From: Escherichia phage fEgEco12
Sequence record: PP777464.1
Direction: 5' to 3' (one strand)
DNA: 64,000 nucleotides
Under the pieces are notes generated by a model. It had not been told where the DNA came from. It did no database searches and was given only the letters and a program-made list of their open reading frames with translations. The first letter of the stretch is position 1. Every line of letters begins with the position of its first letter. The position numbers and the translations under genes are program-made. Positions 2,866-42,361 of this stretch are shown here, in pieces.

Positions 2866-2981
<116 letters not shown>

Positions 2982-2985
2982 AAAT

Positions 2986-3071
<86 letters not shown>

Positions 3072-3088
3072 CAATTAAAGGTTAAACC

Positions 3089-3249
<161 letters not shown>

Positions 3250-3253
<4 letters not shown>

Positions 3254-3410
3254 CACATGAAGAATGGATGAATGACATTAATTTTAGATATTCGGGTATC
3301 GGTAAATGGCTAAAGTATCATTGGGAATTCATTTCAGAGCCGCATCTGTATGATAAACTTATCAACGATCCAGCATATGAAATGTACTTAATTGAACTAC
3401 TGGTACGAAT

Positions 3411-3414
<4 letters not shown>
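3250..3414 (+). CDS. small protein, MTHEEW family (copy 2)
   Basis: 54-aa ORF, ATGA overlap with copy 1. Confidence 0.4.
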
Positions 3415-3583
<169 letters not shown>

Positions 3584-3585
3584 AG

Positions 3586-4006
<421 letters not shown>

Positions 4007-4011
<5 letters not shown>

Positions 4012-4027
4012 CTAAATAGTTCAGTAC
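4007..4027 (+). repeat. 21-nt repeat CTTGACTAAATAGTTCAGTAC, copy 2 (no -10 box)
   Basis: identical 21-mer also at 3586, 4078, 4847. Confidence 0.8.
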
Positions 4028-4066
4028 CAAGGAGATTAATATGTTTAAAGATGAACGTCCAGATTT

Positions 4067-4107
<41 letters not shown>

Positions 4108-4109
4108 GA

Positions 4110-4440
4110 ATTCCACAATCAGACGTATATGGTGTAAGTTACGTCGATGCAATCCAGAACAAGATCTCTGGTACTCTAGGAAGTGGTGAATGTTAACCTA
4201 GACGGGTTTGATAATTGGACGATAGGCAATTATTACTTGACTAGCAGGTTTAAACTAGAGGTGACTATCCTTCACCAAACTGGAAAACCGGATGGACTTT
4301 TATTTAAAAGGGTAAGGCGTGGAAATATGTTTACAGTAGTTGCTTTTAGTAGCCTGTACGCCCCACGTCAAGGTAGCCGAAAGGCAAGTTAAAACGGGTG
4401 GTTATAAAGCTTAATTAACAGCGGCGTTTAAAAGCGTCAC
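4110..4440 (+). ncRNA. candidate small stable RNA (promoter-driven, poor coding potential, ends in hairpin plus T-run)
   Basis: locally GC-richer; only a weak GTG-initiated ORF (4183-4392); T-run at 4445-4451. Confidence 0.25.
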
Positions 4441-4469
4441 CATCCATTTTTTTAATTAAAGTTGGTGAT

Positions 4470-5289
<820 letters not shown>

Positions 5290-5302
5290 ATAGGAAATTA
5301 AA

Positions 5303-5488
5303 ATGCAACTTTTAATTCTTTCAATATTGTATATTATTATAATGGTTCCGATATCAATACGTTTAATTACAGTTGAACGATTTTTATCGAAACATGGAAA
5401 TAGATCTATGATCTTTGTACCAATCGGGTTGATATTGTTTGGTATATTTTCATTTATAATGGGAATTAACGCTACATTCATTTCATAG
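5303..5488 (+). CDS. small membrane protein
   Basis: 61 aa, two hydrophobic segments. Confidence 0.45.
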   Translation: MQLLILSILYIIIMVPISIRLITVERFLSKHGNRSMIFVPIGLILFGIFSFIMGINATFIS

Positions 5489-5497
5489 GAAACAAAT

Positions 5498-5755
<258 letters not shown>

Positions 5756-5763
5756 GAATTTAA

Positions 5764-6165
5764 ATGAAAAAGAATGACTTGATCAAAATGCTTCAAGAGA
5801 TTGACGGCAATCCAGAGATTGTTATTTGGAATGGATATGTCGATGATTATATGAACATCGAAAAAGGCTTGACTAAAATCACTCTAGTCAAAGAAACTGA
5901 ACAGTTCCTTCTGGAAGCATTAGTGCACGAATGGTGCAAACGTAACAATACATTCGACATTCCAGAAGATCAACGAACTAAGATTGCAGAACAAGCTAAA
6001 AAACTTCATAAGAAACGTGAATACGATTTCCAGAACCCACATGTTACTGAAGACGAATTCAATCACTGGTACGGTAAAAAGAAATTGACAAAATATGTCA
6101 TTTCACCTAAACTACGTGGTAAGACTTCACTTGGTGTCTTCAACGCCGCTGACTTAAACTACTAG
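5764..6165 (+). CDS. hypothetical protein (N-terminus paralogous to 6178 ORF)
   Basis: MKKNDLIKMLQ versus MKAKDLIKILQ. Confidence 0.55.
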   Translation: MKKNDLIKMLQEIDGNPEIVIWNGYVDDYMNIEKGLTKITLVKETEQFLLEALVHEWCKRNNTFDIPEDQRTKIAEQAKKLHKKREYDFQNPHVTEDEFNHWYGKKKLTKYVISPKLRGKTSLGVFNAADLNY

Positions 6166-6174
6166 CGGGTATTA

Positions 6175-6442
<268 letters not shown>

Positions 6443-6487
6443 GATTCCCGATTCAGTAGCTTATAAAGCAGTTCCGTGTGTGCCTAT

Positions 6488-6540
<53 letters not shown>

Positions 6541-6541
6541 T

Positions 6542-6579
<38 letters not shown>

Positions 6580-6598
6580 AGAGGTACTTCGAGTATGC

Positions 6599-6724
<126 letters not shown>

Positions 6725-6726
6725 TA

Positions 6727-6816
<90 letters not shown>

Positions 6817-6887
6817 TGCCAAACAGCTTGAAGAACTTTGTAGTGCTGCACCTATGCCGACACTTGGCTTAATCAAGTTGATGCGTA

Positions 6888-6929
<42 letters not shown>

Positions 6930-6980
6930 GCCTCCCCTCAATGCGAAAGAGTATAGAGACTTGTTGGTTATCTTACTTCT

Positions 6981-7063
<83 letters not shown>

Positions 7064-7066
7064 TCA

Positions 7067-7139
<73 letters not shown>

Positions 7140-7157
7140 CAAAAATAAAGGCACACT

Positions 7158-33816: not shown

Positions 33817-33850
33817 AGGGTTGACTTCGGTCGGCCCTTTTTGCTATAAT
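33817..33850 (+). promoter_or_regulatory. fused terminator hairpin plus early promoter (PeSL-like cassette)
   Basis: AGGGTTGAC-TTCG-GTCGGCCCTT then TTTTTGCTATAAT. Confidence 0.65.
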
Positions 33851-34586: not shown

Positions 34587-34925
34587 ATGGAACAACATTT
34601 TGAATTAATTAATAAGGTATCATTTTATGTAGTATCGTTAATTTGGGTGTATTACATGTTTTGTTACATTATTGCATTCTTCCGATACACGACCTTGTAT
34701 CAACGCATATACTACGATGCACCAATTTCATTTTTGATGTTCAGTGCATGTACGTGGGGGATAATTGAAGCACTGGCATGTGGATATAGTACGGACGAAT
34801 TAAATCTCGTATCGGTGTTGACATTACTAACAATTGCTACTATGATAGCTACAGTTCCGATATTTTTGCTCTTTAAACTGCTTCATCGCATCGATGAGTG
34901 GCGTAATAAAATCCCTGAAAAGTAA
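34587..34925 (+). CDS. small 3-TM membrane protein, family member A1
   Basis: 112 aa; C-terminal RIDEWRNKIPEK. Confidence 0.6.
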   Translation: MEQHFELINKVSFYVVSLIWVYYMFCYIIAFFRYTTLYQRIYYDAPISFLMFSACTWGIIEALACGYSTDELNLVSVLTLLTIATMIATVPIFLLFKLLHRIDEWRNKIPEK

Positions 34926-34934
34926 GGATTGATA

Positions 34935-35276
34935 ATGATTTTTTACACTAATGCGTTTGCTTATGCCGTTGCATCAATCTACATTGTGTACTTCTTATTT
35001 GGTGGAGTACTGTACTTCTTTAAGTACAAAACATTGTTTAACCGAATGTATCCAAATCATCCAATTGTAGTAGTACTTTTGATTATTTCTGTTGCTCACA
35101 TCATTGTAGAAACAATAATGGGTATTAGTGCAGTACATTACAGTCTAGGTACTATTGTGATTATTACTATGATCATCGCATACATTTTAGTAATGGGTTC
35201 TGGTTTATTTGGGAATGTAGCAATGAAATTGTATAATCGAATTAAAACCTTACGTGATAATCTACCGGAGCGTTGA
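34935..35276 (+). CDS. small 3-TM membrane protein, family member A2
   Basis: ATG 34935 preferred over TTG 34929; C-terminal LRDNLPER. Confidence 0.6.
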   Translation: MIFYTNAFAYAVASIYIVYFLFGGVLYFFKYKTLFNRMYPNHPIVVVLLIISVAHIIVETIMGISAVHYSLGTIVIITMIIAYILVMGSGLFGNVAMKLYNRIKTLRDNLPER

Positions 35277-35277
35277 G

Positions 35278-35622
35278 ATGTATAATTTAAATTTAATCTC
35301 ATATATCATAACAACACTGTTTACTTTCTATACCTTTGTTGGTATACTCCTACTGTACTTTAAATTTTATAAACTCTTTGACCGTTTATATCCATCATTG
35401 GAACATGAATTCTTATTGGTGATGTACATCTGTTTAACGTGTATGTCTACATTTTTCACTGTATTTGATGGTATCATCGGTATTAAAGCTGAAGATCCAA
35501 ATGGTAGTACACTTGTTGCCTTTATCCTGGTAGGATTCTTCGGTACTTATATCACTTTCATTTCAACATGGTCTGTGGTTGATTATCTCATTAGATTACG
35601 AGATAAAATGCCAAATCGATAG
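35278..35622 (+). CDS. small 3-TM membrane protein, family member A3
   Basis: ATG overlaps upstream stop; C-terminal LRDKMPNR. Confidence 0.6.
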   Translation: MYNLNLISYIITTLFTFYTFVGILLLYFKFYKLFDRLYPSLEHEFLLVMYICLTCMSTFFTVFDGIIGIKAEDPNGSTLVAFILVGFFGTYITFISTWSVVDYLIRLRDKMPNR

Positions 35623-36269: not shown

Positions 36270-36271
36270 GT

Positions 36272-36299
36272 TGACAAACTCATTCAGTACTGTATAATG
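36272..36299 (+). promoter_or_regulatory. early promoter TTGACA-N16-TATAAT with extended -10 TG
   Basis: TTGACA 36272-36277, TGTATAAT 36292-36299. Confidence 0.6.
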
Positions 36300-36345
36300 T
36301 TTATCAAGGGGATGAACTTCTCATCCCCACAATCGAGGAATTGTC

Positions 36346-36900
36346 ATGATTACTTTTAAGAAAACTGCTAACCACATCCATGAGATCTACATTAACGGTC
36401 ACAAAGCTGGCCTTCTTCGTTTACTCGCCCATCATCCGAATATTACCGTATCTGATAATGAACCTAAAGATTGGCGTGTATTTTTCTTTGGAAAGTACAG
36501 TGATTTTCAAGTATCAAACCTGAAGAACATTCGTTCAGTATGCACGTTAACTGAAATTAAAGAAAAGTTAACCAAAGCATTGAAAACTAATCCAGATAGT
36601 GTTCTTCCACCTGATAACTTTGTAGAGAAAGGATATGCCTTAGCTCATTTCAAAGATGGTACTATTCAATCTATCAGTACTGAATATGAATATCAATGGA
36701 CTGAGTACTTCACTTATGGATCGCGTAATACATTGATGGCTTCACGTAGTAAATTGGAAGAAGTACTGACTCGTATGAATGAACGCGAGCGTCAATTTTA
36801 TGACAAACCAGAAATGTGGAGTTCAACTTACATTGACCGTATTGACTATGTTATTATGACTCCAATCTTTGACACTGCTTACTATGATTCTTTGAAATAA
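36346..36900 (+). CDS. hypothetical protein
   Basis: 184-aa ORF. Confidence 0.6.
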   Translation: MITFKKTANHIHEIYINGHKAGLLRLLAHHPNITVSDNEPKDWRVFFFGKYSDFQVSNLKNIRSVCTLTEIKEKLTKALKTNPDSVLPPDNFVEKGYALAHFKDGTIQSISTEYEYQWTEYFTYGSRNTLMASRSKLEEVLTRMNERERQFYDKPEMWSSTYIDRIDYVIMTPIFDTAYYDSLK

Positions 36901-36911
36901 GGATAACTTAT

Positions 36912-37088
36912 ATGAAACTACGTACTCGTAATCGACTGATGGATGCACTGTACCATGAACAGCTTTCACTGAATGAAGTGAAGCGACAGTTAATGTACAC
37001 ATATCTGTTACCCGCTCGCATTGCAAAACAACGTGCTAAAGAATTGCTGAAAGAAGCAATCGAGTACTGGGAATCTGATTCGTACTAA
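36912..37088 (+). CDS. hypothetical small basic protein
   Basis: 58-aa ORF, hand-translated. Confidence 0.4.
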   Translation: MKLRTRNRLMDALYHEQLSLNEVKRQLMYTYLLPARIAKQRAKELLKEAIEYWESDSY

Positions 37089-37116
37089 TTGTCACGTTAA
37101 TTAAGTGAGGCGATAA

Positions 37117-37368
37117 ATGAAAATTTTATTAGTTCTAATACTACTAATTGTTTTACCATTTACGTTAGTATCCCCTGAACTTGCATGGAATGTGTTTGTG
37201 TACTTACTATGTACTATTGTAGTAAATGGTATCTTGTTCTTAGTTCTATTCATAAATGGAATAGGACACGGTGGAGGATGGACCAGTACTGCTGATATTG
37301 TACATAAAACCACTATGTCTTTATTTGTAGTGTGGAATTTATTCTGGACTTGGTTTGTGTTCTTCTAA
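37117..37368 (+). CDS. small membrane protein
   Basis: 83 aa, three hydrophobic segments. Confidence 0.5.
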   Translation: MKILLVLILLIVLPFTLVSPELAWNVFVYLLCTIVVNGILFLVLFINGIGHGGGWTSTADIVHKTTMSLFVVWNLFWTWFVFF

Positions 37369-37377
37369 TTAAAAAAT

Positions 37378-37749
37378 ATGAATATAGATTTGAAAGGTGC
37401 AACACGAACTGTCATACTCATTGGGGAATATGCTATCAAGATTCCAACCTTTAAAAGTTGGAAGCTATTCTTAACAGGGATGATAGCTAACCTCAATGAA
37501 CGTTCGTGGATGCAGTACTCCAAGCGTAGTAATAGTGGTATCTGCCCTACGTTGTGGTCATCATGTACTGGACTAGTAACTGTACAGAAGCGTTGTAAGC
37601 CAGTGCAACATAGGGGTTTATTTTGGGTGGAGTTGTGTGCTTTAGCATTGGATTCAGAGTTAAGTACTGACTTCTTCTATTCAGATGCGAAGCCAGAAAA
37701 CTTTGGGTATCTGTGTGGTAAGTTGGTTAAACTTGATTATGGAGATTAA
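37378..37749 (+). CDS. protein-kinase-like mini ORF (Gly-rich loop/AIK ... DAKPEN ... DYG spacing)
   Basis: K21, D103-x-K-P-E-N, D120-Y-G at kinase-like spacings of 82 and 17 residues. Confidence 0.4.
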   Translation: MNIDLKGATRTVILIGEYAIKIPTFKSWKLFLTGMIANLNERSWMQYSKRSNSGICPTLWSSCTGLVTVQKRCKPVQHRGLFWVELCALALDSELSTDFFYSDAKPENFGYLCGKLVKLDYGD

Positions 37750-37750
37750 T

Positions 37751-38020
37751 ATGTACGCATTGTATAATAAAGAAAAGAAACGATTTGCTAAGGTTGAAAT
37801 TTCGATTGATACATTTGACATGTTGGAGTACTGTATTGTAACGGATTTATATGCTAACTTGTATTACGTTCTTGATGACGTATCAGTACTGCAACGATTG
37901 CTTGAGAATTCCAAAAGTCAATGCCAGGGCATCCATGATGGTTCATCTTATGAAACACCTGAGTGTTCCTACGGCTATCTGGACGGGTATGAGATTGTGA
38001 AGTTGGGGATTGTTGAATAA
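37751..38020 (+). CDS. hypothetical protein
   Basis: ATG after GGAG; track start 37685 overlaps upstream gene. Confidence 0.45.
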   Translation: MYALYNKEKKRFAKVEISIDTFDMLEYCIVTDLYANLYYVLDDVSVLQRLLENSKSQCQGIHDGSSYETPECSYGYLDGYEIVKLGIVE

Positions 38021-38032
38021 ATGGATTAAACA

Positions 38033-38446
38033 ATGAAGAAGTGTATCACGTGTAATATTGAAAAAGACATTAGTGAATTTGGTATAAGAAAAGATACTGG
38101 GAAACATAGAAATACATGCAAAGGTTGTAGTAATATTACCAGTAAGAAAACCAGAAATAAAAAAACTGATGTCAAAAAACTTGAAGAAATCAAAAGAAAA
38201 AATAAAGATTTCATGACCAGAGTTAAATCATTTTATGGTTGTAGTATTTGCATGATGAAGTATCCAGAATGTTTAGACTTTCACCATCTTGATCCTAATA
38301 CCAAAGAACATACACCAAGTTCTATGTTCAGTAAAAGTCGAGAATCTATCAAAGATGAAATTCGAAAGTGTATGATTCTTTGTTCTAATCACCATCGCAT
38401 GGTACATTCTGGTAGACTATGTTTGATTGAAAGAAAAAAGGGTTGA
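38033..38446 (+). CDS. HNH endonuclease-like protein with Cys-rich N-terminus
   Basis: CITCN...CKGC; HHLDP...N...CSNHH motif. Confidence 0.55.
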   Translation: MKKCITCNIEKDISEFGIRKDTGKHRNTCKGCSNITSKKTRNKKTDVKKLEEIKRKNKDFMTRVKSFYGCSICMMKYPECLDFHHLDPNTKEHTPSSMFSKSRESIKDEIRKCMILCSNHHRMVHSGRLCLIERKKG

Positions 38447-38472
38447 CTTCGGTCAGCCCTTTTTGCTATAAT
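38441..38472 (+). promoter_or_regulatory. fused terminator hairpin plus early promoter (PeSL-like) overlapping HNH stop codon
   Basis: GGGTTGAC-TTCG-GTCAGCCC then TTTTTGCTATAAT. Confidence 0.65.
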
Positions 38473-38500
38473 CATTTCATCGAAACGAGAGGATGAATAC

Positions 38501-39016
38501 ATGACACGCATTAACTTAGTACACGTTAAAGAACTTGCTGACCAACATCTGATGGCTGAATATCGTGAACTCCCACGTGTGTTTGGTGCTGTACAAAAAC
38601 ATGTTCAAGCACGTAAGCGAGTCCGTGATTTCAAAATTAACAGTACTTATCTGTTAGGTTCAGGTCATGTAACATTCTTCTACGACAAGTTATTGTACTT
38701 ACAGAAGCGTCATATTGAAATTGTTAACGAATGTTTGCGTCGTGGGATGAAGATTCAAAACACTGAAGTAAACGACATTAGCGGCATCCCTGCTGAGTTT
38801 TGTAATGACTACGCACCATCGGAGTCAGAGATTAAAATGTCTCGTGAGCGTTTGATTGAGAAGCTCCAGATGAAGCCTACTTGGTATAAATTTACTGACG
38901 TTGAACGCCCAGAGTACGTTAAAGATATGCAGGACGTAAGTAGTAATATAGAATCTAGTACTGATATGTTCGACGAAATTGAAGAACAAATCAAAGATGA
39001 AATGAATAATTATTAA
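38501..39016 (+). CDS. denV: pyrimidine dimer DNA glycosylase/AP lyase (T4 endonuclease V homolog) with C-terminal extension
   Basis: N-terminal MTRINL...[21 protein letters not shown]...KRVRDFKI...[10 protein letters not shown] matches T4 DenV from memory. Confidence 0.9.
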
Positions 39017-39022
39017 AGGAAA

Positions 39023-39055
39023 GGGTTGACTTCGGTCAGCCCTTTTTGCTATAAT
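39023..39055 (+). promoter_or_regulatory. fused terminator hairpin plus early promoter (PeSL-like cassette)
   Basis: GGGTTGAC-TTCG-GTCAGCCC; TTGACT 39026-39031; TATAAT 39050-39055. Confidence 0.65.
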
Positions 39056-39083
39056 TATTTCATCAACTGATGAGGATAACGAA

Positions 39084-39854
39084 ATGACCAGAGAAGCACG
39101 TAGCATTCAAATCCAGAAAAACTTCAACTCCATGATGGTTGCTCTTGAGTGTTTGCTCGACGATAGCAGTACTGTAAAAAGTATGGTTGTCAGCGGTGCA
39201 CCTGGTGTTGGTAAGACTTACACCCTGTCACAACGCCTCCAGAAAGCTCATGACGCAGCAGAATGGAACGTAGCCACTATCAGTGGTAAGATGACTACTC
39301 TTGCTCTGTATGAAGTTCTGTACAAGAATCGTCACAGCACTAATGTATTAGTACTGGATGATATGGACAGCATCTTTGATTCAGAAGACGGTATGAACCT
39401 GCTCAAAGCAGTACTGGACAGTGGTAAACGTACTGTGTCTTACATGACTAGCTCTAAGTACTTAACTACCAACGGTATCCCTAACAGCTTTGATTTTAAC
39501 GGTCGTATCGTATTCATTACTAACAAAGATTTAGCACTGAATGCTAAAGCTAAAACCAAAATGTCTGCTCACTATGCTGCTCTTATGTCTCGCTCTGTGT
39601 ATGTTGACTTACAGATCCAGACTAAAAGCGATATCATGATTCACATTGAAAACGTAATGAACAAGACCAACATCCTGTCAACTAAAGGTGTTAATAGTAA
39701 TGGTAGCAAAGCAATCCTGAATTGGATGCTGAAACATGAAGATGCACTTCGTGCTCCTTCACTGCGTATGCCTCTGTTGATTTCAGCAGTATACAACAAC
39801 AACCCGTATGATTGGGAAGAGCAGTGCGAAAACTTGTTCCTTGAGAAAATTTAA
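39084..39854 (+). CDS. P-loop NTPase (Walker A GAPGVGKT)
   Basis: SGAPGVGKT at residues 37-45; hydrophobic stretch then DD consistent with Walker B. Confidence 0.6.
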   Translation: MTREARSIQIQKNFNSMMVALECLLDDSSTVKSMVVSGAPGVGKTYTLSQRLQKAHDAAEWNVATISGKMTTLALYEVLYKNRHSTNVLVLDDMDSIFDSEDGMNLLKAVLDSGKRTVSYMTSSKYLTTNGIPNSFDFNGRIVFITNKDLALNAKAKTKMSAHYAALMSRSVYVDLQIQTKSDIMIHIENVMNKTNILSTKGVNSNGSKAILNWMLKHEDALRAPSLRMPLLISAVYNNNPYDWEEQCENLFLEKI

Positions 39855-39921: not shown

Positions 39922-40260
39922 ATGCTTGAGTTTTTTAATTCAGATACAATGCTTAGTATTACTTTGATTTATCTATTTGGTTTTTTCTTTTATCATGCAC
40001 TAGTTGTAGTACTATGGTATTTTAAAAAGAAAATCGTTTTCAAACTGTATCCTGATGGAAACATTTCACTACTTCTTTTCACTATTATCCAAGGTATGTT
40101 TGCAATTGTTGGTCTTATCGCACACTTAATTTATTGTGCTAATCCACAGTTGAACTCAATATCACAATATATTGTATTCCTTGGATTACTAATTTGGGTG
40201 CTGATATACTTGTTTAATCTCATTATTAATGGTAGAGCAAAAATTCGTGGGGACTTCTAA
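39922..40260 (+). CDS. small 3-TM membrane protein, family member B1
   Basis: 112 aa; basic C-terminus. Confidence 0.6.
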   Translation: MLEFFNSDTMLSITLIYLFGFFFYHALVVVLWYFKKKIVFKLYPDGNISLLLFTIIQGMFAIVGLIAHLIYCANPQLNSISQYIVFLGLLIWVLIYLFNLIINGRAKIRGDF

Positions 40261-40607
40261 TGTTTGAATCTTATCTTGAGTTTTTAAAGAGTAGTTCTGT
40301 TGCACATTCAATTGCAGGGATTATTCTAACAGGTTATGTAACATTTTGGGTGGTTATGTTTCTAGGATGGTATTTTAAACGACAATTCTATAAGCGTAAT
40401 GGTGAAGATTTTATGAATTCTGTTATTAATCAATCGTTGTTTGCATCAACATTGATAGCATGTATTGTAGCAACACTCACAGGAAAGGTACTGCCAGCAT
40501 TCTCCGCAGTTTACGGTACATTGGGTATGATATGTGTAGTTTTTTACTTGACCATTAAACTTTGTTGTGTTATGATTGACCTTCGAAACAAGATACCGGA
40601 GGAATGA
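40260..40607 (+). CDS. small 3-TM membrane protein, family member B2
   Basis: C-terminal DLRNKIPEE; overlapping stop/start. Confidence 0.6.
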   Translation: MFESYLEFLKSSSVAHSIAGIILTGYVTFWVVMFLGWYFKRQFYKRNGEDFMNSVINQSLFASTLIACIVATLTGKVLPAFSAVYGTLGMICVVFYLTIKLCCVMIDLRNKIPEE

Positions 40608-40942
40608 TGGAATATTTTTTACACTTACTGCCGTGGTATATGAAAGTTAGTACTATGTACTATATTCTTAGTGCTGGATTCTACTTTCTGATGTGGTTCT
40701 TCAAACGACCAATTTCAGTATTCATCTCTGATAACATGCTGCAATTAAAATTACACGCATGGTTTTTTATGGCGATGTTTATGCCTATTATTCACTACTC
40801 AATGATTAGTAGAGGTTTACGTTCTAATGGTGAACCAATTATATTAGTATTCTATTGGGGTTCAACTATTGCATATGTAAGTTTGTTGTTGATCCCAGCC
40901 GTTCATAAATTACGTGCTAAAGTTCCTGATGCGAGGTACTAA
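40604..40942 (+). CDS. small 3-TM membrane protein, family member B3
   Basis: C-terminal LRAKVPDARY. Confidence 0.6.
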   Translation: MMEYFLHLLPWYMKVSTMYYILSAGFYFLMWFFKRPISVFISDNMLQLKLHAWFFMAMFMPIIHYSMISRGLRSNGEPIILVFYWGSTIAYVSLLLIPAVHKLRAKVPDARY

Positions 40943-41256
40943 TGGATATCGTAACATTGATTTACACGCTTTATTCATTCTATTTTATTATGTGTTGGGT
41001 TGGATTTTTATTTGTATTGAAGATGTTTGATTATGTTGAAAAACAGATAAAAGAATTTTGTATTCCTTTTATTGGGTCAACCATAATTAGTATTACTTGT
41101 TTGTATTATTTGGTATGTGATCCACCTGTTAATACAGCAATGATTGACTTCATGTTATTACCAACAACTGTTATTTTTTTATGTAGTCTGATGCCACCGA
41201 TTAGTCGTGGGCTAACCGAATTTAGACGCAATCAAAAGCGTAAACGAGGGATGTGA
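40942..41256 (+). CDS. small 3-TM membrane protein, family member B4
   Basis: C-terminal FRRNQKRKRGM. Confidence 0.6.
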   Translation: MDIVTLIYTLYSFYFIMCWVGFLFVLKMFDYVEKQIKEFCIPFIGSTIISITCLYYLVCDPPVNTAMIDFMLLPTTVIFLCSLMPPISRGLTEFRRNQKRKRGM

Positions 41257-41624
41257 TGGAAATTGCACTTATTATATTAACTGCTATGTTGTTTATTAGT
41301 ACAATTGTTATTATTGGCAAGTTCTTCTGTGTATCCTTCTTGGAAACCGTATACGATGAAATTGCTGATGATTATGAATTACATGCGGGATTTTTTACTA
41401 CGTATTGGATTAGTTTATTACTACTTATCACTGTATGGATTTTACATATATTCAAATGGGGTATGGTAGATGGTGATCCAGTACTGGCAATTATCTGTGT
41501 AGTGTTTGGTCTACTCGGTGGTGCTGTCCATAATCTGATGGTAATTTGGCAAACCGTACAATATGTATTAGTTCCACATTTTCAGAGAATGCACCAAAGC
41601 ATCAAATACCGCAAACGAGGATAA
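41253..41624 (+). CDS. small 3-TM membrane protein, family member B5
   Basis: C-terminal IKYRKRG. Confidence 0.6.
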   Translation: MMEIALIILTAMLFISTIVIIGKFFCVSFLETVYDEIADDYELHAGFFTTYWISLLLLITVWILHIFKWGMVDGDPVLAIICVVFGLLGGAVHNLMVIWQTVQYVLVPHFQRMHQSIKYRKRG

Positions 41625-41625
41625 C

Positions 41626-41988
41626 ATGAATAATATTGAATTATCTTTTATTGGTCAATTAATGGTAATGGCGTATACATTTATCTTCTCACTGAATGCA
41701 TTCGTGTGCATTGGGAAGTACTTCCATAAGCGACCATTATCAAATATATATGATGTAATACAAAGGAGATATAGTCCAGCATATACTGTGTTGAGTACAG
41801 CATTCAATTTTGGTTTTATTCTAATGCTGGTTGCATTATTAACATCGAGTTCGAATTTTATAACATTTGGTATTATGGTATGTTCACTAACACTGTGTGT
41901 GGTTATTCTCTGTGCATCCGTTGAGTTGCTGGCATGGATGTATAATAAGATTTCCGAAATCCATGAGCGTTTAGGTAAGAGGAACTAA
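41626..41988 (+). CDS. small 3-TM membrane protein, family member B6
   Basis: C-terminal HERLGKRN. Confidence 0.6.
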   Translation: MNNIELSFIGQLMVMAYTFIFSLNAFVCIGKYFHKRPLSNIYDVIQRRYSPAYTVLSTAFNFGFILMLVALLTSSSNFITFGIMVCSLTLCVVILCASVELLAWMYNKISEIHERLGKRN

Positions 41989-41989
41989 A

Positions 41990-42361
41990 ATGAGTTATCG
42001 TGAAATATTTTCGATCATTACTATTATTGTGTTTAGTTTAGGTTCTTTGATTTGGTTATTGTATTACTTCTGTGTAACCCCAGTATATAATATGCTAAAT
42101 TCAGTTCGCTCTGATGTTGGTATTGTTTCTTTTATTATCTTCATGACATATTATATGCTAAGTATCACAGGTTTGGTTTTGGTTGTTATCTTTGACCTTG
42201 GACCGAATCAAGATGGCATGGAGATGTGGGAATTGATAACGATGTTTGCATGTATGATACCTGCATTTGGTGTATGTGCTGGTGTATTTTATGGGTTGTG
42301 TAAAGGTGTGAACTACTTAAAAAATATCCACAATACTATTCGTAAAAAACGTATGTTATAA
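41990..42361 (+). CDS. small 3-TM membrane protein, family member B7
   Basis: C-terminal IRKKRML. Confidence 0.6.
   Translation: MSYREIFSIITIIVFSLGSLIWLLYYFCVTPVYNMLNSVRSDVGIVSFIIFMTYYMLSITGLVLVVIFDLGPNQDGMEMWELITMFACMIPAFGVCAGVFYGLCKGVNYLKNIHNTIRKKRML

Follow-up and report, generated by a model that had tools for sequence, protein, structure and literature searches.

The closest analogue of the protein reported here is found in the T7K family of phage kinases, which may also serve as a functional model for it. T7 gp0.7 (T7K, PHROG 2828) is an early, motif-less and hyper-promiscuous Ser/Thr/Tyr kinase that disarms bacterial defence systems through mass phosphorylation, and jumbo phages, among them the Asteriusvirus G17, have diverged homologues of it (2026 study, PMC13645617). 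In the same work the kinase domain is taken as residues 1-242 and the DFG-like aspartate is D213 (PMC13645617). We analysed a stretch of 64,000 nucleotides from Escherichia phage fEgEco12 (sequence record PP777464.1), hereafter the window, in which an open reading frame (ORF) of 123 amino acids displays the motifs of a protein kinase and stops directly after the last of them. We consider it very probable that the product of this ORF, called the mini-kinase below, has a kinase-like fold and belongs to PHROG 4301, a family spread over many different phages.

Like the T7K proteins, the mini-kinase is phage-encoded, compact and has little sequence past the DFG-equivalent aspartate. T7K is active with a short tail after this residue and therefore provides a precedent for such a phage kinase, albeit one with ~ 70 additional N-terminal residues. 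Indeed, T7K has ~ 73 residues before its glycine loop and 102 from the lysine to the catalytic aspartate, compared to 6 and 82 in the mini-kinase; its motifs read D-x-H-x-x-N and DPV, compared to D-x-K-x-x-N and DYG in the mini-kinase family, and it bears a C-terminal DNA-binding shut-off domain. Homology to T7 gp0.7 was considered and rejected at the sequence level: the window protein has no match to phrog_2828 and matches only phrog_4301 at E<=0.1, hhalign of the family alignment gives a probability of 0.03, and the family hidden Markov model (HMM) is not significant against T7K or its homologue gp205 of the Asteriusvirus 121Q. Furthermore, no T7K homologue was found in the 64-kb window (tblastn, nothing at E<=1). 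In 121Q, gp205 (gene 205, L015 183-857) has 224 aa and matches T7K by blastp at E 5e-9; its DFG-like aspartate is D204 and the chain ends 20 residues on, a short tail like that of the mini-kinase. The gp205 gene lies 3.1 kb upstream of the one for gp215, the 121Q mini-kinase, and some relatives therefore hold two unrelated compact kinases in one early region.

The comparison was extended to cellular kinases. The loop D-x-K-x-x-N (Hanks subdomain VIb) distinguishes Ser/Thr protein kinases from RIO, Bud32, APH and choline kinases, and in RIO and Bud32 a Ser or Thr stands in place of the lysine. This Ser/Thr-type loop is shared by the mini-kinase, where it reads DAKPEN, and by Hanks-type kinases such as TTK/Mps1, PknB and CaMKI. 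In contrast to these kinases, the mini-kinase has no activation segment, APE motif or helices F-I (~ 110 residues), and helix D is missing as well; its glycine-rich loop is reduced to G-x-T-R-x-V from the canonical G-x-G-x-x-G-x-V, the His and Arg of the HRD motif are not conserved in its family, and none of 87 family members matches PF00069 or PF07714 (Pkinase, PK_Tyr_Ser-Thr). The small kinases OspG, NleH1, HopBF1, Ark1/ArkI, Bud32 and RIO have solved chains of 160-270 residues and keep C-lobe helices past the DFG motif, whereas the mini-kinase family has a median length of 123 residues and no helices past this point.

The ORF starts at the first start codon past an in-frame stop, an ATG, and ends with a TAA at 37747-37749; its features are collected in the table below. 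A preliminary description of the window had pointed to a glycine-containing N-terminal strand followed by AIK (K21), DAKPEN (D103) and DYG (D120), with spacings of 82 residues from K21 to D103 and 17 from D103 to D120. All of these were confirmed on the sequence, the spacings to the residue, as was the end of the ORF right after the DFG-like motif, where D123 alone precedes the stop. The codon of G7 (ggt, 37396-37398) lies within KGATRTV, and K21 and E41 are encoded by aag at 37438-37440 and gaa at 37498-37500. On comparison with canonical motifs, G7, R10 and V12 would represent the second glycine, the third glycine and the valine of GxGxxGxV, A19-x-K21 the AxK of strand 3, E41 the glutamate of helix C, D103-x-K105-x-x-N108 the Ser/Thr form of the catalytic loop and D120-Y-G the DFG motif. 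The pattern is not due to chance, since the same residues are conserved in 253 family members.

Structure prediction was performed with AlphaFold2 (AF2) on an alignment of 87 sequences and gave a model with a mean predicted local distance difference test (pLDDT) of 93.9 and a predicted template modelling score (pTM) of 0.83. The model displays strands at residues 2-4, 10-15 and 18-23, a helix at 28-43 and strands at 58-61 and 68-71, followed in the C-terminal part by a helix at 79-92, a short helix at 97-101 and strands at 109-112 and 115-118. This is the element order of a kinase N-lobe and then of helix E, catalytic loop, strands 7-8 and DFG. The predicted structure thus exhibits the bilobal protein-kinase-like fold, with a five-stranded N-lobe sheet and helix C followed by the active-site elements, and contains the residues that go with it, namely the pair of strand-3 Lys and helix-C Glu, the catalytic Asp, the Asn and the metal-binding Asp ~ 17-18 residues on. 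When the model was compared to the PDB with Foldseek, all 50 of the matches listed were kinases at a probability of ~ 1.0, none of them at E<=1e-3. The matches in BFVD were family members, other small phage kinase-like proteins and giant-virus kinases. Two relatives already carry kinase names: the one from Ralstonia phage RP12 (209 aa) is a 'Protein kinase domain-containing protein' in UniProt, and the one from Kosakonia phage Kc263 (267 aa) is annotated as a Ser/Thr kinase.

At the sequence level the link is weak but consistent, pointing to Ser/Thr kinases. Family profiles searched against PDB sequences retrieved TTK/Mps1, CK1 and MAP3K8 at E 0.026-1.3, with TTK/Mps1 at a sub-threshold 0.026-0.19, and the PDB matches always align 'sDaKPeNFG...DyG' onto the kinase catalytic loop and DFG. 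In Pfam, ABC1 was weakly matched by 7 of the 87 members and FAM69 by 5, no match to RIO1 or Kdo was found, and the window protein itself had no match at E<=1; neither NCBIfam nor PADLOC gave a significant match for it or for the 87 relatives. The checks proposed in the preliminary description included an HMM search and a structure prediction. While the search returned no significant curated kinase HMM, the prediction returned a kinase fold and not the non-kinase fold that, together with the lack of a kinase match, would have led to the proposal being dropped. Hence, the minimal kinase-like fold put forward there is supported by the confident AF2 model together with the in-register, though sub-threshold, TTK/Mps1 alignments.

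The window protein matches the PHROG 4301 profile at E 3.5e-42 (145.5 bits, residues 2-122). This profile, annotated as of unknown function, spans 225 positions, a length due to the minority of members that are extended at the N or C terminus. By tblastn, family members were found in 118 phage records, among them Asteriusvirus, T4-like Dhakavirus and Tequatrovirus, N4-like Gamaleyavirus, Pseudomonas phages (OBP and PaMx11/Ab19-like) and phages of Aeromonas, Ralstonia, Klebsiella, Erwinia and others. An exhaustive HMMER search with a 15-sequence profile against 1.84 billion representatives gave 1,212 clusters with an E-value of up to 1e-3, or 639 with one of up to 1e-10, nearly all of 110-135 aa. 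Three word-indexed homologue searches returned only family-sized proteins, none with a precomputed Pfam domain; the third of them, with a 148-sequence profile, returned more proteins of ~ 120 aa without Pfam domains and no bridge to a named kinase family. Named sources include Caudoviricetes metagenome-assembled genomes (MAGs), prophages of Salmonella, Acinetobacter and Aquimarina and a Bacteroidales MAG, and the hosts therefore span Proteobacteria and Bacteroidota; the carriers are jumbo, T4-like, N4-like, lambdoid and sipho-type phages. Members of the family are basic proteins (median pI 9.2), labelled 'hypothetical' in nearly all cases, and no description of the family was found in the literature searched. 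The occurrence of homologues in PaMx11-like phages had raised identity with the phage 5-hmdU DNA kinase (5-hydroxymethyluracil DNA kinase, 5-HMUDK) as a candidate; it was rejected, as 5-HMUDKs, which characteristically co-occur with aGPT-Pplase genes, are P-loop kinases, PaMx11 gp49 included (PMC8989533), in contrast to the protein-kinase fold predicted here.

Conservation was calculated from 253 aligned family members. In addition to the positions given in the table, G65 is conserved at 96%, K105 at 87% and G110 at 97%; K21 and E41 stand 20 residues apart. Position 103 is Asp in 74% and Glu in 23% of members (97% together), and position 108 is Asn in 76% and Ser in 21% (97% together). The triplet at 103, 105 and 108 is D-K-N in 158 of the 253 members and E-K-S in 50, which together make up 208; Glu goes with Asn 4 times, and Asp with Ser is not among the 15 commonest combinations listed. 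The changes from Asp to Glu and from Asn to Ser are thus coupled, in ~ 20% of the family, which argues for a maintained, working active site. Between the 5th and 75th percentiles of the family the catalytic Asp and the DxG Asp are 17 residues apart, and the distance from Lys to catalytic Asp has a median of 80. A distant subfamily has a loop that reads G-x-G-x-x-R-x-V.

Three further residues, R10, G34 and N38 (codons 37405-37407, 37477-37479 and 37489-37491), are invariant, family-specific and have no counterpart in canonical kinases; R10 sits at the position of the third glycine, and G34 and N38 lie in helix C. Furthermore, Aeromonas phage PS1 has two tandem copies (L004 2642-3366; PS1_0028, PS1_0029), the upstream one of which keeps the C-terminal half ('...KVFNYGWDKYGRLVKIDLG') with a divergent N-terminal half and may be a degenerate paralogue.

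Given that the ORF stops directly past the DFG-like motif and the next ATG follows 1 nt past its stop, we examined whether it could encode no more than the N-terminal part of a kinase whose gene is split, frameshifted or truncated and whose fold is completed by the 89-aa ORF at 37751-38020 (phrog_8563), as the preliminary description had offered as one of its two alternatives. A few longer relatives of 205-286 aa do exist, such as those of Kc263, OBP_197 (273 aa), P0222 (257 aa) and P0244 (205 aa). However, their tails are not conserved family-wide and have no similarity to kinase sequences, and among 250 members 88% finish <=5 residues past the DFG-like Asp (median 3, >30 in only 1.6%). Ending at this point is a defining trait of the family and no accident of this genome. 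Moreover, the 89-aa ORF occurs in 38 phage records, confined to Asteriusvirus and RaK2-like Klebsiella phages, compared to 118 records from many genera for the kinase. The ORFs downstream of the family gene elsewhere are unrelated to the 89-aa ORF: phi G17 and PhiZZ30 have unrelated proteins of ~ 95 aa, JS10 has rnlB, Ab19 a hydrolase and PS1 another ORF. The AF2 model is confident for the 123 residues alone. For the 89-aa ORF, modelling from a single sequence was not informative (pLDDT 38.7). In light of the family-wide end, the narrow range of the 89-aa ORF and the unrelated downstream genes, the split-gene proposal was rejected and is now barely credible; the mini-kinase ORF is a complete, stand-alone gene and no fragment.

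What such a complete protein could do was deduced from the parts present in its model. The whole N-lobe appears to be retained, with three strands, a nucleotide loop with one Gly and an Arg, the Lys of strand 3 and the Glu-bearing helix C, and the predicted remnant of the C-lobe consists of helix E, the D-x-K-x-x-N loop, two short strands and the D-Y-G that would bind Mg. As the chain stops 3 residues past D120, it lacks both the activation segment and the helices by which ordinary kinases hold the substrate and anchor the core. Mg-ATP would be bound between the lobes through K21/E41, N108 and D120, and D103 would activate the hydroxyl that receives the gamma-phosphate, helped by K105 in the manner of Ser/Thr kinases. 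Ser and Thr side chains are proposed as targets because the D-x-K-x-x-N loop is the form found in Ser/Thr protein kinases. Since the active site would be open and no substrate-binding lobe is present, low sequence specificity is expected, or else targeting through a host protein or self-association. The protein would act early, as an accessory function directed at host proteins in takeover or counter-defence; an accessory, host-directed role is proposed because the gene is carried singly by very different phages, without a fixed partner, and in the window lies in a block of small genes behind a perfect host-type promoter.

Taken as a whole, an autonomous minimal Ser/Thr-type kinase core, probably of low specificity and used on host proteins, has in our estimate an even chance of being correct. 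Its parts differ in strength: catalytic phosphotransfer is likely, protein Ser/Thr as the substrate comes slightly short of an even chance, and a role in host takeover or anti-defence is suggested more tentatively still. More doubtful is a wider form of the same idea, in which the family is the smallest self-sufficient protein-kinase fold, a core of ~ 120 residues that phosphorylates without a C-lobe and serves many unrelated phages as a general host-takeover or anti-defence kinase. Here self-association or a host protein would perhaps supply the missing half, and the invariant Arg of the nucleotide loop would make up for missing elements.

Several observations weigh against a minimal protein kinase. 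None of the kinase HMMs of Pfam and NCBIfam is significant for the window protein or its 87 relatives, and the matches to PDB kinase sequences are all sub-threshold. The glycine-rich loop is non-canonical, with one Gly and the invariant Arg at the third Gly, the HRD His/Arg are not conserved among the 253 members, and ~ 20% of these have Glu/Ser in place of Asp/Asn. To our knowledge no kinase core of such a size without helix F has been characterised, and the stability and activity of a monomer are therefore uncertain. The gene is dispensable, as copies in some Asteriusvirus genomes are frameshifted or partial, and the early timing is read from a consensus promoter and nothing else. In addition, the basic pI, together with the adjacency of denV or RNA ligase genes in some phages, would also fit a nucleic-acid substrate.

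In order to compare gene neighbourhoods, all ORFs within 3-6 kb of the family gene were clustered for 45 loci, and no partner gene conserved across lineages was found among them. The only neighbour common to distant lineages is denV, seen in two: it lies directly downstream, with start/stop overlap in some cases, in IMG/VR Pseudomonas-phage-like contigs (L036, L038-L041) and two genes downstream in Asteriusvirus, and it was not found near most copies. In a Salmonella lambdoid prophage the family gene is flanked by the Rz lysis gene and the one for the small terminase subunit, the classic moron slot (a promoter scan around this copy gave nothing usable), in Acinetobacter and marine siphophages it lies within the head-tail connector block, and in an Aquimarina prophage among small early ORFs ahead of the terminase. 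In other settings it adjoins genes for the portal, endolysin, Dam methylase or a dATP/dGTP pyrophosphohydrolase-DUF551 protein. Because the settings vary by lineage and no neighbour is fixed, the family gene is an autonomous, mobile accessory gene. One marine siphophage contig has a gene with an Acb2/Tad1 hairpin domain (PF24729; L009 2318-2650) near the family member in the head-tail block; PF24729 marks an anti-defence sponge family, and counter-defence genes are therefore inserted in this head-tail module.

One alternative is a nucleic-acid kinase that phosphorylates the ends or riboses of RNA or DNA in concert with repair enzymes. That the fold can act on RNA is known from the archaeal RNA kinase Ark1, the family gene stands directly upstream of RNA ligase 2 (rnlB) in the T4-like phage JS10, adjoins a tRNA cluster in PhiZZ30 and is surrounded in Ab19 by genes for DNA ligase, exonuclease and RNA ligase, and the denV adjacency, the basic pI and the invariant nucleotide-loop Arg would suit such a substrate as well. 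However, denV is 50 kb away in JS10, the denV reaction requires no kinase step, and most settings (lysis/terminase moron slot, head-tail block, portal, endolysin) are without nearby nucleic-acid enzymes. Ark1 is structurally no closer than ordinary protein kinases, and the phage DNA-base kinase 5-HMUDK has the different, P-loop fold (PMC8989533). We thus regard a nucleic-acid kinase as improbable. The most probable of the alternatives is an active kinase on a small molecule, such as an immune signal derived from a nucleotide, a metabolite related to NAD or a different hydroxyl-bearing compound. With its open active site the protein would then be a simple ATP-dependent modifying enzyme directed against host defence or used in metabolism. 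This remains unlikely in view of three points: the catalytic-loop Lys, conserved as given above, is a hallmark of Ser/Thr protein kinases and absent from small-molecule kinase families, the best matches at the sequence level are protein kinases, and small-molecule kinases of such a fold hold their substrate in a C-terminal helical subdomain that the family also lacks.

Between these two in probability, and also unlikely, is a non-catalytic role. The protein could be a nucleotide-binding module or pseudokinase that binds a host protein, or it could be active only with a C-lobe supplied by the host, like OspG, which needs E2~ubiquitin. This would agree with the absence of helix F and the remaining C-lobe, which stabilise the active conformation in all characterised kinases, with the departures in the glycine-rich loop and HRD motif, and with the presence among the structural neighbours of small bacterial effector kinases, e.g. 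OspG solved with an E2-Ub conjugate. On the other hand, all phosphotransfer residues are kept at 74-100% over more than 250 diverged sequences and the D/E and N/S changes are coupled, which indicates selection on catalysis and not on binding alone.

The mini-kinase gene lies in AT-rich phage DNA with dense small plus-strand ORFs, and positions 36300-39100 of the window share 95-99% identity with jumbo phages of Escherichia that belong to the 121Q/PBECO4 group (genus Asteriusvirus) and have genomes of ~ 350-385 kb. It is part of a run of closely spaced plus-strand ORFs from 36346 to 38446. The promoter heading this run presumably drives the gene, and the consensus promoter together with the run of ORFs suggests early transcription by the host RNA polymerase. 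The 33-nt element behind the run probably closes this transcription unit and opens the next one, that of denV. An HNH endonuclease gene, placed 280 bp downstream by the preliminary description, is indeed present; the distance to its start is 284 bp, and this interval is occupied by the 89-aa ORF.

Features of the mini-kinase locus, in window coordinates; percentages are conservation among the 253 aligned family members
Feature	Position	Strand	Details
Sigma-70 consensus promoter TTGACA-16-TATAAT	36271..36298	+	12/12 matches; heads the ORF block with the mini-kinase gene
Mini-kinase gene (putative), PHROG 4301 member	37378..37749	+	123 aa, 13.95 kDa, pI 8.8
Glycine-rich-loop equivalent G7-A-T9-R10-T-V12	37396..37413	+	G7 99%, T9 89%, R10 99%, V12 95%
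Strand 3 'AIKIP' with putative ATP-anchoring K21	37432..37446	+	K21 100%, P23 98%; model strand 18-23
Helix C, residues 28-43, with E41	37459..37506	+	E41 100%, N38 99%, G34 99%, F31 95%; model helix
Putative catalytic loop D103-A-K105-P-E-N108	37684..37701	+	D-x-K-x-x-N; in register with TTK 'sDlKPaNf'
DFG equivalent D120-Y-G122	37735..37743	+	D120 99%, Y121 82%, G122 83%; then D123 and stop
HNH endonuclease ORF	38033-38446	+	phrog_2255, E 1.6e-32; between the 89-aa ORF and denV
Hairpin-plus-promoter element, 33 nt	38440..38472	+	TTGACT-18-TATAAT, 11/12; hairpin read from sequence
denV (pyrimidine-dimer DNA glycosylase)	38501-39016

The HNH ORF is missing at the equivalent site in phage 121Q, where denV comes straight after gene 216, and is probably a free-standing mobile homing endonuclease. 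The 33-nt element, GGGTTGACTTCGGTCAGCCCTTTTTGCTATAAT, is found in 3 plus-strand copies in the window (33818-33850, 38440-38472 and 39023-39055) with 0 expected by chance. It comprises a GC-rich hairpin, the stem of which holds the TTGACT -35 box, followed by a T-run and TATAAT, and looks like a joint terminator and promoter that separates early gene blocks. Elsewhere on the plus strand, 34587-35622 and 39922-42361 hold tandem arrays of paralogous small predicted membrane proteins of ~ 112-123 aa each, most of which end in a basic tail, e.g. R-x-K-[IMV]-P-[ED], and a tRNA cluster at 2892-7140 encodes Ser(TGA), Ser(GCT), Met(CAT), Asn(GTT) and two Thr(TGT).

The shortest kinase chains that came up as structural matches have 160-176 residues; with a median of 123, the family may represent the kinase fold in its smallest form so far. 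If active, it would lower the size limit known for the protein-kinase fold and reveal which of its parts are truly needed for phosphotransfer, which bears on kinase evolution and the design of enzymes. Phage kinases would then comprise a second class beside that of T7 gp0.7, unrelated to it in sequence and far more widespread. As the family has at least 1,212 clusters and occurs in phages of both Proteobacteria and Bacteroidota, an established activity would annotate a large block of viral dark matter.

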